A stretch of DNA of 64,000 bases from Escherichia coli (GTDB lineage: Bacteria; Pseudomonadota; Gammaproteobacteria; Enterobacterales; Enterobacteriaceae). The stretch's first letter is position 1. Each line of letters begins with the position of its first letter. Below, in pieces: positions 26,138 to 54,919 of the stretch. Position numbers and translations under genes: made by a program. The DNA lies in the NCBI RefSeq assembly GCF_045037415.1, contig NZ_CP173438.1. One strand, written 5' to 3'. The notes under the pieces are model-generated. The model was given only the letters and a program-made list of their open reading frames with translations, searched no databases and was not told the DNA's origin.

Positions 26138-27553
26138 TTATTTCAGCCCCAGGGCGGCTTTCATGGTGTAGAAGAGATCGGTCTGGTCGGTCAGTCCAAC
26201 AACATTGGCGGCATGCGGGCCATACGCCGCAATACGCAACTGACTGCCGGTATGTTCTTGTGAATCCTCTTCGGAGTTCCCGTAACTCATCACCATCACT
26301 GCGCCATCTTTGGTATTTAGCGCCTGGGTGAGGCCCGGAGCTTTGGTATCTGGCGCAACTATCTGGCTGGCATGGGCGTGATCAGCGGTGACTATGACCA
26401 ACGTGTTACCATCCTTTTTAGCGAATTCCAGCGCCCGTTGTACGGCTTCATCGAGATCGACCGTCTCGCCAATTTGCCCACAAGGATTCGCAGCGTGATC
26501 CTGTTTATCGATTGACGCACCTTCAACTTGCAGGAAAAAGCCTTTCTCATTTTTACTCAACAATTCAATGGCTTTGTCGGTCATCTGCGCCAGGGTCGGT
26601 ACACTGTCATTACGTTGCGGATTAGGCGTACAGGTGACTGCGGGCTTATCTATATTACCGTGGTACGTTGCTTTCGGTCCTTGCCAGCGCACTGGCATAT
26701 TGCCGTCAGCAAACAGTCCTAATAGGGGTTTTTGCTGATTCGCTTCCGTCACCGAATTCAGTGAGGCAGCATCGCTCACCAACTGATAACCACGCGCCTG
26801 TGCCTGTTCACGCAGCGTTTTTCCCTGCCATTCACCGGCGGTTGCCGTTTCAGCAAAGGTTTTTGCACCGCCGCCAAGCGTAACATCGGCACGGGCGTTA
26901 AGCAGCTGTTCGGTAATCGATCCTTTTCCGCCTTTTTCCAGAGCGTTACCCGGACATTTTTCACTGGTCGCACTTGGACCGTAGCATTTGCGCGAGGTCA
27001 CATGCGCCACCAGCGCAGCGGGCGTGGCATCCTGCAACTCTGCGGTAGAAACGTTACCGGTCGCCAGACCTGCGGCTTTTGCCATTTCCAGAATCGTTGG
27101 GTGATCTTTTTCGTGAATATCGACGCCCAGCGCGCCGTTATAGGTTTTGACACCAGTTGACCAGGCGGTTGCTGATGCAGCCGAGTCGGTGACGTAGTCC
27201 GGTTTGCCGGTTTTTTTATTCAGCGCATAGTGAGTGTATTGCCCGGTAAGCGGTAAGGCATCGATACCTTTAAAAAAGCCGCCCGCACCTTCGGCATAAT
27301 TGCGTGCGGCAGTAATTTCCGAGTCCCCCATCCCATCGCCAATCAGCAAAATAATATTTTTTGCAGGTTTATCGCTAAGAGAATCACGCAGAGCAGCGGT
27401 CTGATCACCCGTTAAGCGGCGAGCACCGCCGGGTGCAGTAATATCGCCCTGAGCTGCCCGGTTTTCCAGAACAGGCATTTCTGGTGTCCGGGCTTTTGTC
27501 ACAGGGGTAAACAGTAACGGTAAGAGTGCCAGTGCAATAGTGCTTTGTTTCAC
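26138..27553 (-). CDS. phoA: Alkaline phosphatase, 471-aa precursor with signal peptide
   Basis: ORF 26138..27622; reading from the GTG at 27553 gives [43 protein letters not shown]... with active-site region DSAASATAW. Confidence 0.97.
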
Positions 27554-27613
27554 TTTATTTTCTCCATGTACAAATACATTAAAAAATAAAAACAAAGCGA
27601 CTATAAGTCTCGG

Positions 27614-27633
27614 CCGTGACAACTTTATGACAG
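27614..27633 (-). promoter_or_regulatory. Pho box of the phoA promoter
   Basis: Minus-strand CTGTCATAAAGTTGTCACGG, the classic phoA Pho box, 60-80 bp upstream of the phoA GTG. Confidence 0.85.
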
Positions 27634-27653
27634 CTGTTGAAAAGATTAACTTT

Positions 27654-27914
27654 TTACTGACGAGGATGCCTCAATAACTTCTTTACGTAATCGCGCAGCA
27701 GCTCCGTATCGTCGTCAGGAATGCTGGCATCGGGCTTTACCTCGTACAGCGCCCCCTCTACCTGATCAATCAACCGCTGTTGATCATTTTGCGCCATATT
27801 GCGAAGCATTGCCGTGACGATAATCTCCAAAGCTTCTACCTGCGCACACAGTTCTTTCGACTCTTCTTCTTTTTGGGCAAGCTTAAATAACAACTCAGCA
27901 ATGAGATTTTTCAT
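27654..27914 (-). CDS. iraP: Anti-adapter protein IraP (YaiB), 86 aa
   Basis: ORF translation [86 protein letters not shown]. Confidence 0.93.
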
Positions 27915-28376
27915 GTCTGTATTTCCTTATCCAAAGTATGGAGAAGTTAACATTATGTTTCACAACTTCATAGTGTCTGGAAGTATTATTTTTATGACAA
28001 AGGAAATACTTTGCGCAAATATTTTTTGTTTGATTACCAGCGAAACGTTTCTCTTATTTAAATAATTACCCACATAAAATATAGGTCTTTAATTATCAAC
28101 CTTTATTATAAATAAAAGTTATGAAATATATTCTCTTCGTTATCTTATAATTAAGAGAAAAAAACTCACCACATGGTCATTTAAGCCAGGAATAAATTAG
28201 CTTCCCGTTCATCATTTTTGTGATCTTGCACACATCTTTGAGATAACGCACTTTCTTCACCAGTACGTTGCTCGCTTTGTCAGCAGAAGATTGCAACATT
28301 CTGTCAGAAGGCCGCGAATCCCCCGTTTTGTCGTGGTAATGTATGCACTTTGTGTTAGACGGGATAGGTTTTTAAG

Positions 28377-34170: not shown

Positions 34171-34857
<687 letters not shown>

Positions 34858-34858
34858 T

Positions 34859-37867
<3,009 letters not shown>

Positions 37868-38392
37868 TTGTCATCCCTCCTCAGGGACGTAATAAGTTGA
37901 TCCATCAATTATCAATGCATAGAAAACATATTATGTTTCGCGTTTACGATTATGCGGCGTTATAGAGGAATGGTTCAATTATTCTTTCCCCTAAGTCCGA
38001 TTGCGGACATATATAAAGCACGTGAACACACACACAGAAATAAATAACAAAAACACAATATTTCAATACGTTAATGAAAGCGTTAATTTTAAAACATAGA
38101 CCATAAAAATATAAAACAGCTAAAACAGACAAATAATGTATCAATAAGCAATGAACTTTAAGTTATTCACTTTTTGAAAACGTCACCAAATCCCCAAAAA
38201 CAATAATCTATGGCTATAAATAAAAATTAAAAATATTTTCAGTGAATATGAAATTATTGCTATTTCTATTACAAAGATGTCCTGACCTCTTTTTCATTCT
38301 CTTCTTGTCAACATCGCGACAACTTTCGTAAAACACACCCAGCCTGCTTCAGGTATACTATGCCCCTCGATTCCACAAACATCAGGCAGACC

Positions 38393-39367
38393 ATGACAGA
38401 CTTAATCCAACGCCCTCGTCGCCTGCGCAAATCTCCTGCGCTGCGCGCTATGTTTGAAGAGACAACACTTAGCCTTAACGACCTGGTGTTGCCGATCTTT
38501 GTTGAAGAAGAAATTGACGACTATAAAGCCGTTGAAGCCATGCCAGGCGTGATGCGCATTCCAGAGAAACATCTGGCACGCGAAATTGAACGCATCGCCA
38601 ACGCCGGTATTCGTTCCGTGATGACTTTCGGCATCTCTCACCATACCGATGAAACCGGCAGCGATGCCTGGCGGGAAGATGGACTGGTGGCGCGTATGTC
38701 GCGCATCTGCAAGCAGACCGTGCCAGAAATGATCGTTATGTCAGACACCTGCTTCTGTGAATACACATCTCACGGTCACTGCGGTGTTCTGTGCGAGCAT
38801 GGCGTCGACAACGACGCGACTCTGGAAAATTTAGGCAAGCAAGCCGTGGTTGCAGCTGCTGCAGGCGCAGACTTCATCGCCCCTTCTGCCGCGATGGATG
38901 GTCAGGTACAGGCGATTCGCCAGGCGCTGGACGCTGCGGGCTTTAAAGATACGGCGATTATGTCGTATTCGACCAAGTTCGCCTCCTCCTTTTATGGCCC
39001 GTTCCGTGAAGCTGCCGGAAGCGCATTAAAAGGCGACCGCAAAAGCTATCAGATGAACCCAATGAACCGTCGTGAGGCGATTCGTGAGTCACTGCTGGAT
39101 GAAGCCCAGGGCGCAGACTGCCTGATGGTTAAACCTGCCGGAGCATACCTCGACATCGTGCGTGAGCTGCGTGAACGTACTGAATTGCCGATTGGCGCGT
39201 ATCAGGTGAGCGGTGAGTACGCGATGATTAAGTTCGCCGCGCTGGCGGGTGCTATAGATGAAGAGAAAGTCGTGCTCGAAAGCTTAGGTTCGATTAAGCG
39301 TGCGGGTGCGGATCTGATTTTCAGCTACTTTGCGCTGGATTTGGCTGAGAAGAAGATTCTGCGTTAA
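38393..39367 (+). CDS. hemB: Delta-aminolevulinic acid dehydratase (porphobilinogen synthase), 324 aa
   Basis: ORF 38360..39367; internal Met gives [55 protein letters not shown]... Confidence 0.96.
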
Positions 39368-39406
39368 TGATCATTATGCCGGGTTATCCAACCCGGCATT
39401 TCCCCC

Positions 39407-40258
39407 TTACCCCGCCCGATAAAACGGAATATCCCCAAGAATCGTCGCCCGATGCATAATCCGCCGCTGTGGCAGGTAATCCGCATTGGCATAGTGCTGA
39501 GTCACTCGGTTATCCCAAATCGCAATATCATTCGGTTGCCAGCGCCAGCGCACCTGAAACTCCGGTTTAGTGATATGGGCAAACAAAAAACCTAACAAGG
39601 CTTCGCTCTCTTTCTCGCTGACATCAACAATTCGTGTGGTAAAACCTTCGTTCACAAACAGTGCCTGTTTACCGGTCACCGGATGCGTTCGCACCACCGG
39701 ATGTAGCAACGGTGGATTTTTCGCGACCGCCTCACGCCAGCGTTGATGCTCAGCCTCGGTTTTGCGGTACTTGTATTCCGGGAACGATTTACGGAAATCA
39801 TGCTCCGCACGCAACCCGCTCAACAGCTGGCGGAAGGGAACAGAGAGCGCCTCATATGCGGCAATACCACTGGCCCAGAGCGTATCGCCGCCGGTCGAGG
39901 GTAACTCTTTCGCCGCCAGAATCGCCCCTGCGGGTGGCGTTTGAATAAATGTCACATCGGTGTGCCAGTTGTCGTTATCCGGCGGATTATCATTATGGGT
40001 ATCCAGGACGATGATCTCGTCAACCCCTTCAGCATGAGGGTAAACAGGGTGAATATGCAGCTCGCCAAAACGCTGGGCCAGCGCGCGTTGCTGCTGCGGC
40101 GTGATAGCTTGATCGCGCAGAAACACCACCTGATGGCGCAGCACCGCATGGTAAAGCTGTTCAAACTGATTATCGCTTAACGGGCGCGTTAAGTCGGCCC
40201 CCGTAATTTGTGCGCCAATATACGGCCCCAGCGGGGTAATGCTCAGACGTTCACTCAT
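39407..40258 (-). CDS. tauD: Taurine dioxygenase (alpha-ketoglutarate dependent), 283 aa
   Basis: ORF translation [50 protein letters not shown]... Confidence 0.96.
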
Positions 40259-54085: not shown

Positions 54086-54919
54086 ATGCAGAACAATGAG
54101 CAGACGGAATACAAAACCGTGCGCGGCTTAACCCGCGGTCTAATGTTATTAAATATGTTAAATAAACTTGATGGCGGTGCCAGCGTCGGGCTGCTGGCGG
54201 AACTCAGCGGCCTGCATCGCACCACTGTGCGGCGACTGCTGGAGACGTTACTGGAAGAGGGATATGTCCGGCGCAGTACCTCCGATGACAGTTTTCGTCT
54301 GACCATCAAAGTGCGGCAATTAAGCGAAGGATTTCGTGACGAACAGTGGATTTCTGCACTGGCGGCCCCGCTGCTGGGCGATCTGTTGCGCGAAGTGGTA
54401 TGGCCGACAGATGTGTCCACGCTGGATGTTGATGCAATGGTGGTACGCGAAACCACCCATCGTTTCAGCCGCTTATCTTTTCACCGGGCAATGGTCGGGC
54501 GACGGTTACCGCTTCTGAAAACCGCCTCGGGCCTGACCTGGCTGGCCTTTTGCCCGGAACAAGAACGCAAGGAATTAATCGAGATGTTAGCCTCCCGCCC
54601 CGGTGATGACTATCAACTGGCACGAGAACCGTTAAAGCTGGAAGCCATTCTGGCGCGCGCGCGCAAAGAGGGGTACGGACAGAACTACCGCGGCTGGGAT
54701 CAGGAGGAGAAGATCGCCTCTATCGCCGTACCGCTGCGCAGTGAACAACGGGTGATTGGCTGTCTGAATCTGGTGTATATGGCGAGCGCAATGACCATCG
54801 AACAGGCAGCGGAAAAGCATCTTCCGGCGCTGCAACGGGTGGCAAAACAGATCGAAGAAGGGGTTGAATCGCAGGCTATTCTGGTAGCGGGAAGGCGAAG
54901 CGGCGTGCATTTACGCTGA
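54086..54919 (+). CDS. mhpR: IclR-family transcriptional activator of the mhp operon, 277 aa
   Basis: ORF 54074..54919; internal Met gives MQNNEQTEYKTVRGLTRGLMLLNMLNKLDGGASVGLLAELSGLHRTTVRRLLETL... Confidence 0.93.
   Translation: MQNNEQTEYKTVRGLTRGLMLLNMLNKLDGGASVGLLAELSGLHRTTVRRLLETLLEEGYVRRSTSDDSFRLTIKVRQLSEGFRDEQWISALAAPLLGDLLREVVWPTDVSTLDVDAMVVRETTHRFSRLSFHRAMVGRRLPLLKTASGLTWLAFCPEQERKELIEMLASRPGDDYQLAREPLKLEAILARARKEGYGQNYRGWDQEEKIASIAVPLRSEQRVIGCLNLVYMASAMTIEQAAEKHLPALQRVAKQIEEGVESQAILVAGRRSGVHLR

Follow-up and report, generated by a model that had tools for sequence, protein, structure and literature searches.

The 525 bp that separate hemB from a divergently transcribed autotransporter gene in Escherichia coli are probably an ancestral divergent control region, common to the hemB/upaC/ehaB/yaiT locus and built in three layers, with an AT-rich middle that is the likely platform for H-NS. 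On the adhesin side, some 150 bp would hold a sigma-70-like promoter, an operator-like palindrome near -60 and a leader of about 75 nt with a hairpin; on the hemB side, about 75 bp would hold hemB's own conserved promoter blocks; and the intervening 200-300 bp or so are very AT-rich DNA that is free in sequence and kept in composition and approximate length. This tract is most probably where H-NS binds, from where it would spread or bridge over the adjacent adhesin promoter, the adhesin being kept off under laboratory conditions and hemB, on the far side, staying on. UpaC, EhaB and SeaB are adhesins that are silent in vitro and under consideration as vaccine antigens, and work on them could make use of the precise, testable map of the predicted promoter and operator given here.

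Layout of the locus and its conserved, predicted promoter elements

The window analyzed here is a stretch of 64,000 nucleotides of E. coli DNA that differs from E. coli TUM13064, from which we took the gene annotation, at 5 of 64,000 positions. A preliminary description of this DNA had singled out positions 37868 to 38392 as an AT-rich region upstream of yaiT, and these coordinates proved to be those of the exact 525-bp divergent intergenic region, the start codon of the autotransporter gene ending at 37867 on the minus strand and the hemB ATG lying at 38393 (Table 1). The interval is equally the promoter region of housekeeping hemB, a point that the description overlooked.

Table 1. Features of the hemB-adhesin locus, in window coordinates
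Feature	Position	Strand	Remarks
iprA (formerly yaiV)	34171..34794	-	39.4% GC; winged-HTH product, weak cNMP-binding-like N-terminus
Autotransporter adhesin gene, type Va	34880..37867	-	Intact ORF, 995 aa; 45.7% GC
Intergenic region	37868..38392		525 bp, divergent; 33.1% GC
Hairpin over Shine-Dalgarno (predicted)	37873..37888	-	GUCCCU-GAGG-AGGGAU, then GACAA-AUG
Inverted repeat	37897..37908		TTGAT-CC-ATCAA, within predicted 5' leader
Predicted sigma-70 promoter, adhesin	37949..37978	-	-35 TTGAAC (37978-37973), 18-nt spacer, -10 CATAAT (37954-37949)
Palindrome	37995..38008		GTCCGATTGCGGAC; 14 bp, GTCCG-N4-CGGAC
AT-rich core	38016..38215		27.5% GC; sequence unconstrained, composition and approximate length conserved
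(AC)5 repeat	38026..38035		ACACACACAC; proximal edge of hypervariable core, ~84-93 bp upstream of predicted adhesin start
Predicted hemB promoter	38320..38359	+	Block CAACTTTCGTAAAACA (38320-38335, weak -35 AAAACA), -10 TATACT (38354-38359)
hemB (porphobilinogen synthase)	38393..39367	+	54.1% GC

The autotransporter protein matches the Pfam families Autotransporter (E = 5.5e-47), Pertactin and AC_1, and the locus has all the parts that define one encoding a type Va (AIDA-I-type) adhesin: signal peptide, passenger, autochaperone, C-terminal beta-barrel and the position between hemB and iprA. Compared with c0478 (UpaC) of strain CFT073, the protein differs at 10 of 995 residues (99% identity) and the intergenic region, which corresponds to NC_004431 464953-465477, at 9 of 525 bp (98.3% identity). 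The gene is thus the UpaC gene of CFT073, and it is the positional ortholog of EhaB, of SeaB and of the K-12 pseudogene yaiT, which is split by IS3; the O157 counterpart is annotated as ehaB. Among E. coli strains the passenger domain (window 35868-37768) is hypervariable, at 13-80% identity per 100 bp, with signal peptide and beta-barrel kept at 95-100% identity. Beyond hemB, the gap to tauD (39368-39406) measures 39 bp in this and other B2-type strains and 106 bp in K-12, O157 and O104, a difference of one indel of ~67 bp that is possibly a REP-type element.

A degenerate hemB pattern, run against a single genome of each species, yielded 119 loci. Upstream of hemB and in divergent orientation, 55 species from more than 14 genera of Enterobacteriaceae encode an autotransporter signal peptide, with Escherichia, Citrobacter, Enterobacter, Lelliottia, Trabulsiella, Superficieibacter, Pseudocitrobacter, Phytobacter, Pluralibacter, Kosakonia, Yokenella, Huaxiibacter, Silvania and one Kluyvera represented. 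Across these species the intergenic region is 404-626 bp long (median 489) and has a GC content of 30.6-38.5% (median 34.4%), against a median of 57% for hemB.

To footprint the region we aligned 22 intergenic regions of about 17 genera and then counted the resulting motifs in all 56. From Escherichia to Kosakonia there is almost no variation in the ~150 bp that adjoin the adhesin gene, 37868 to about 38015. Within this stretch, GCATAAT, which contains the predicted -10 element, occurs in 56/56 regions and [A/T]TTGAAC, the predicted -35 element, in 54/56; their 18-nt spacing is identical in 53 of those 54, and a consensus scan independently selected the same pair. Transcription of the adhesin gene is accordingly predicted to start near 37942, which would give a leader some 75 nt long. 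Upstream of this putative promoter is a palindrome whose consensus, GTCYR-N4-YRGAC, was found in 51 of the 56 regions. It lies 29 nt upstream of the -35 block in all 50 regions that could be scored, which would put its centre some 60 bp ahead of the predicted start. Across the window the motif is at chance level (9 occurrences against 5.6 +/- 2.2 expected). The palindrome looks like an operator, a candidate binding site for a dimeric regulator.

Conservation extends into the predicted leader. The sequence TCCCTGAGGAGGGAT is identical in 54 of the 56 regions, spanning more than 14 genera, and puts the Shine-Dalgarno sequence inside a hairpin of 5-6 bp, 5 nt before the ATG, which the minimum-energy fold of the predicted leader contains. 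When folded, the 105-nt autotransporter leader gave a z-score of -1.74, which is not significant. The hairpin over the ribosome-binding site may control translation. A further conserved block in the cross-genus alignment, GTTG(A/G)TCCATCAA, coincides with the inverted repeat of Table 1. Collectively, the putative -35 and -10 elements, the palindrome and the Shine-Dalgarno hairpin form a promoter-like module that is unchanged across genera and newly described here. On the opposite flank, the blocks of the predicted hemB promoter are likewise conserved across genera in the alignment, and the ~75 bp next to hemB appear to carry that gene's own promoter.

Base composition and reported repression by H-NS

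The marked AT-richness that had drawn attention to the region is real. Its GC content of 33.1% compares with 52.0% for the window, a level reached by only 0.24% of the window's 525-bp sliding windows. Among the window's 40 intergenic regions it is the longest and the third lowest in GC, after two short ones that flank iraP; TpA steps are twice as frequent as the window average, and the central 200 bp are poorer in GC still (Table 1). A second AT-rich trough, at 33% GC, spans window positions 27544-28299 around iraP and an annotated pseudogene, and the H-NS signal of iraP is also raised (about 12) in an MG1655 ChIP table.

The more specific signs of silencing that had been read into the sequence did not hold. 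Instead of long A/T runs, we found homopolymers of 5 nt at most, and the 15 runs of at least 4 nt do not exceed what dinucleotide shuffles yield (11.9 +/- 2.3; p = 0.13). Nor are A-tracts phased: Fourier power of AA/TT at 10-11.5 bp falls short of the mean of the shuffles (p = 0.71). Curvature, which had been proposed as a check, was calculated with a wedge model, and by this measure the intergenic mean is unexceptional, ranking near the 83rd percentile among 525-bp windows. One local maximum, near 38129, reaches the 98.9th percentile, and 46 peaks elsewhere in the window top the 99th. The sequence TCGATAAATT is a published 10-bp high-affinity H-NS motif, and searching the intergenic region for this motif with up to 2 mismatches gave 2 matches against 1.7 expected, which is no enrichment.

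UpaC is reported to be repressed by H-NS in uropathogenic E. coli (Allsopp 2012, as cited in PMC5012682), and H-NS regulation is also given for autotransporters (Allsopp 2012, as cited in PMC6956023). In our literature search we found no paper that links yaiT with H-NS under the name yaiT, and searching for hemB together with yaiT returned nothing relevant. A per-gene table of CFT073 ChIP-seq (PMC9765446) lists average H-NS IP/input values by gene, the intergenic region not being reported separately. In this table c0478 has a value of 6.71, averaged over the 3-kb gene and not called bound, which is ~8-10x that of background genes (0.5-1), and its RNAP value is low (1.11). The value for iprA is 34.47, called "H-NS bound", and that for hemB is 2.2, not bound. 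Given that araC is called bound at 7.72, the cutoff must lie between 6.71 and 7.72. MG1655 shows the same pattern, at 4.67 for yaiT and 27.51 for iprA (PMC9765446). Taken together, these values indicate that the 3-kb adhesin gene is partly covered by H-NS and that the strongest local target is iprA.

Of the marks of an H-NS-silenced promoter, then, the AT-rich DNA and, through secondary sources, the reported repression of UpaC stand; a nucleation motif or curvature, common at such promoters but not required, was not found, nor was the phasing that had been described. Silencing by H-NS is the mechanism with the best support; it would act through base composition and not by way of one site or a bend. 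At the adhesin locus it is moderate in strength, and for the intergenic region itself we infer it. The AT-rich core would probably be the platform on which H-NS nucleates and from which it spreads, or else an insulating spacer. What was correct in the preliminary description was already in print, UpaC being cited as H-NS-repressed and the locus being known to be ancestral.

The upaC promoter region of CFT073 is the closest comparison, since it is the same locus, with H-NS repression of UpaC on record in secondary sources; it differs in having (AC)4AA where the window has (AC)5, and in nothing substantive. The H-NS-silenced genes for upaH, upaG/ehaG, F9 fimbriae and sslE, which show little or no expression in laboratory culture (PMC5012682, PMC13248724), similarly combine AT-rich upstream DNA with a surface adhesin gene. 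The adhesin studied here departs from those systems: it is ancestral to the family and not confined to a lineage, its gene has only an intermediate ChIP signal, and it shares its control region with a housekeeping gene.

Divergent core haplotypes and a possible link to iprA

Closer inspection of positions 38016-38215 revealed an unconstrained AT-rich core with deeply divergent, trans-specific haplotypes, which is also new. Among 8 E. coli alleles, 104 of the 200 sites are variable, with almost no indels and no codon periodicity, and between genera the core cannot be aligned. The p-distance between B2 and K-12 cores is 36.4%, against 11.8% at the four-fold sites of six flanking genes; distances reach 37%, and core divergence is ~3-4x that of local four-fold sites. 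The plateau of 35-40% may in part reflect saturation in AT-rich sequence. Identity of intergenic regions to the window allele is bimodal: 1515 genomes are at 95% or above, 15 at 90-95% and 3875 at 80-90%, K-12 among the last at 83.3%. hemB, by comparison, is 97.8% (the lowest full-length row) to 100% identical in the rows sampled, and only 2 of 5425 records fall below 95%.

E. coli holds at least four deeply divergent classes of core haplotype, whose length is conserved within 4 bp. The B2 core differs by 20% from that of E. whittamii and by 36% from that of K-12, and the O157 core by 9.5% from that of Escherichia sp. E1V33. Distances in hemB run the opposite way, at 1.3-1.8% within E. coli, 2.1% to E1V33, 5% to E. 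whittamii and 9% to E. albertii. Core haplotypes thus conflict with the species tree and cross species boundaries. They also assort independently of passenger alleles, as in strain RIVM_C036569, which combines a B2-type intergenic region with an EhaB-type passenger, and allele-level exchange of both passenger and core is likely. With at least two alleles of less than 90% identity between the same conserved gene pair, the locus belongs with the 'switched' intergenic regions attributed to horizontal regulatory switching (Oren et al. 2014, cited in Thorpe et al. 2018, PMC5890482). It departs from them in that only the central 200 bp are switched and both core promoters are present in every allele; the main difference between strains lies in an upstream cassette of 200 bp and not in the core promoter. 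Because both promoters and the length are retained, the regulatory consequence of such switching is not obvious.

Much of this would also be expected if the core were a neutral spacer that had drifted to the AT mutational equilibrium, any H-NS binding being incidental. The failure to align across genera, the 104 variable sites and the excess over four-fold divergence all suit such a spacer, as do the lack of motif enrichment, phasing and curvature and the fact that c0478 is not called H-NS-bound by ChIP-seq; the AT-richness of an unconstrained spacer could indeed be purely mutational. The length of the region tells against it. Given the deletion bias of bacterial genomes, a useless spacer would be expected to shorten, yet the intergenic length stays within 404-626 bp in 55 species. 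Moreover, hns-dependent repression of UpaC is reported in the secondary sources named above, and divergence at 3-4 times the synonymous rate, together with haplotypes that cross species, needs more than relaxed constraint. Considering both sides, we regard a purely neutral spacer as unlikely and retain the AT-rich core as the probable H-NS platform.

The preliminary description had paired the adhesin with neighbouring yaiV, a putative regulator, in a small silenced module. As to the putative regulator, the iprA product is indeed a winged-helix DNA-binding protein (Pfam HTH_46, E = 5e-31; NCBIfam IprA equivalog match), and its gene adjoins the adhesin gene downstream across genera, wherever the retrieved DNA extends far enough. 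Telling against a module, published accounts give iprA roles elsewhere, in peroxide resistance and in fim expression, and the gene persists in species without the adhesin. On the coding strand between the adhesin gene and iprA (34795-34879) no intrinsic terminator was predicted. Where the adhesin has been lost, in Kluyvera genomosp. 1 and S. enterica subsp. diarizonae, the promoter module survives upstream of iprA with its spacing intact, and the latter also keeps the palindrome there. Given the lack of a predicted terminator and a promoter module that comes to lie directly upstream of iprA after the loss, the two genes are possibly co-transcribed, which lends the module indirect support.

A more direct connection would exist if the palindrome were an operator. 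Class I activator sites of the Crp/Fnr family are 5-N4-5 palindromes centred near -61.5, and GTCCG-N4-CGGAC has the same 5-4-5 geometry, lies ~60 bp upstream of the predicted start and has a Crp-like regulator gene, iprA, as its conserved neighbour. Unlike those sites, its half-site matches no regulator known to us, and a second copy near iprA, looked for with autoregulation in mind, was not found. We therefore propose only as a speculative and rather improbable reading that the palindrome is an operator at which IprA, or another dedicated regulator, counters H-NS, with the core a shuffled cassette that tunes silencing. Were it true, the adhesin gene and iprA would form an ancient regulator-target pair, and core haplotypes common to Escherichia species would set how tightly each lineage silences its adhesin.

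Ancestry, coding potential and the (AC)5 repeat

The region had been likened to the promoters of horizontally acquired surface-protein genes. That its AT-rich DNA marks a recently gained adhesin island is highly improbable and, for the locus as a whole, already refuted. The low GC of the autotransporter gene and of iprA, both under the window average, and the recombination mosaics seen in the passenger domain and the intergenic core are what such an island might leave behind, but 5423 of 5426 complete E. coli genomes carry the locus, and the order hemB, intergenic region, autotransporter gene, iprA recurs in 55 species and more than 14 genera, including Citrobacter, Enterobacter, Trabulsiella, Superficieibacter, Pseudocitrobacter, Kosakonia and Lelliottia. 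We found neither a patchy distribution nor absence from the same locus in relatives. Size and AT-richness, being conserved in 55 species, are old properties of the region and no mark of foreign DNA. A 2026 study of the Salmonella ortholog SeaB likewise concluded that the locus is syntenic and ancestral (PMC13248724). An origin of the core from a repeat or mobile element was rejected as well, the intergenic region being single-copy in those 5423 genomes (median 1 place per E. coli genome).

It is extremely improbable that the core encodes a small protein or small RNA. The window allele has a 64-aa ORF (TTG start, minus strand), K-12-type alleles have an ATG ORF of 85-91 aa across the core on the hemB (plus) strand, and one RefSeq genome annotates a hypothetical protein in the core; no ORF is conserved between alleles, however, and the variable sites are spread over codon positions without periodicity (35/32/37, p = 0.83). 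The K-12-type ORF, which corresponds to about 37952-38220 of the window and is missing from B2 alleles, is probably spurious. As for RNA, positions 37000-39500 have no Rfam match at E <= 1, and the fold of the autotransporter leader, which does not include the core, is unremarkable as noted above.

The (AC)5 repeat is located as first described and is the sole (AC)5/(GT)5 in the window, but any role for it fails, as the repeat is allele-specific and such repeats are at chance level: dinucleotide repeats of at least 5 units number 2 in the window against 1.2 expected. It lies upstream of the palindrome, and the K-12, O157, O104 and GN03551 alleles lack it, as do other genera; CFT073 has (AC)4AA by substitution and PM06121 has (AC)4 by a 2-bp deletion. 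A BLAST census with 60-nt flanks across 5426 E. coli genomes found (AC)5 in 872, (AC)4 in about 9 and (AC)6 in 0. A phase-variable switch, in which slippage of the tract shifts the spacing of an upstream element and toggles adhesin expression, is close to refuted: copy number does vary, even among seemingly close isolates, but the tract has 5 units only, lies outside the -35/-10 spacer and well upstream of the predicted start, shows no expanded allele in the census and is found in only some alleles, against the long tract, coding or -35/-10 placement and many length alleles of phase-variation repeats. We conclude that (AC)5 is an incidental, allele-specific and ordinary short repeat. A terminator-like hairpin involving it was rejected for its weak G-T pairing and lack of conservation. 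Among apparently related isolates that seem to belong to one study series, strain 4/0 has (AC)4 and strains 4/1-1, 4/4 and 2/0 have (AC)5, which suggests recent slippage within the series. The longest dinucleotide repeat in the window is (GC)6, at 54653-54664 inside the coding region of mhpR.
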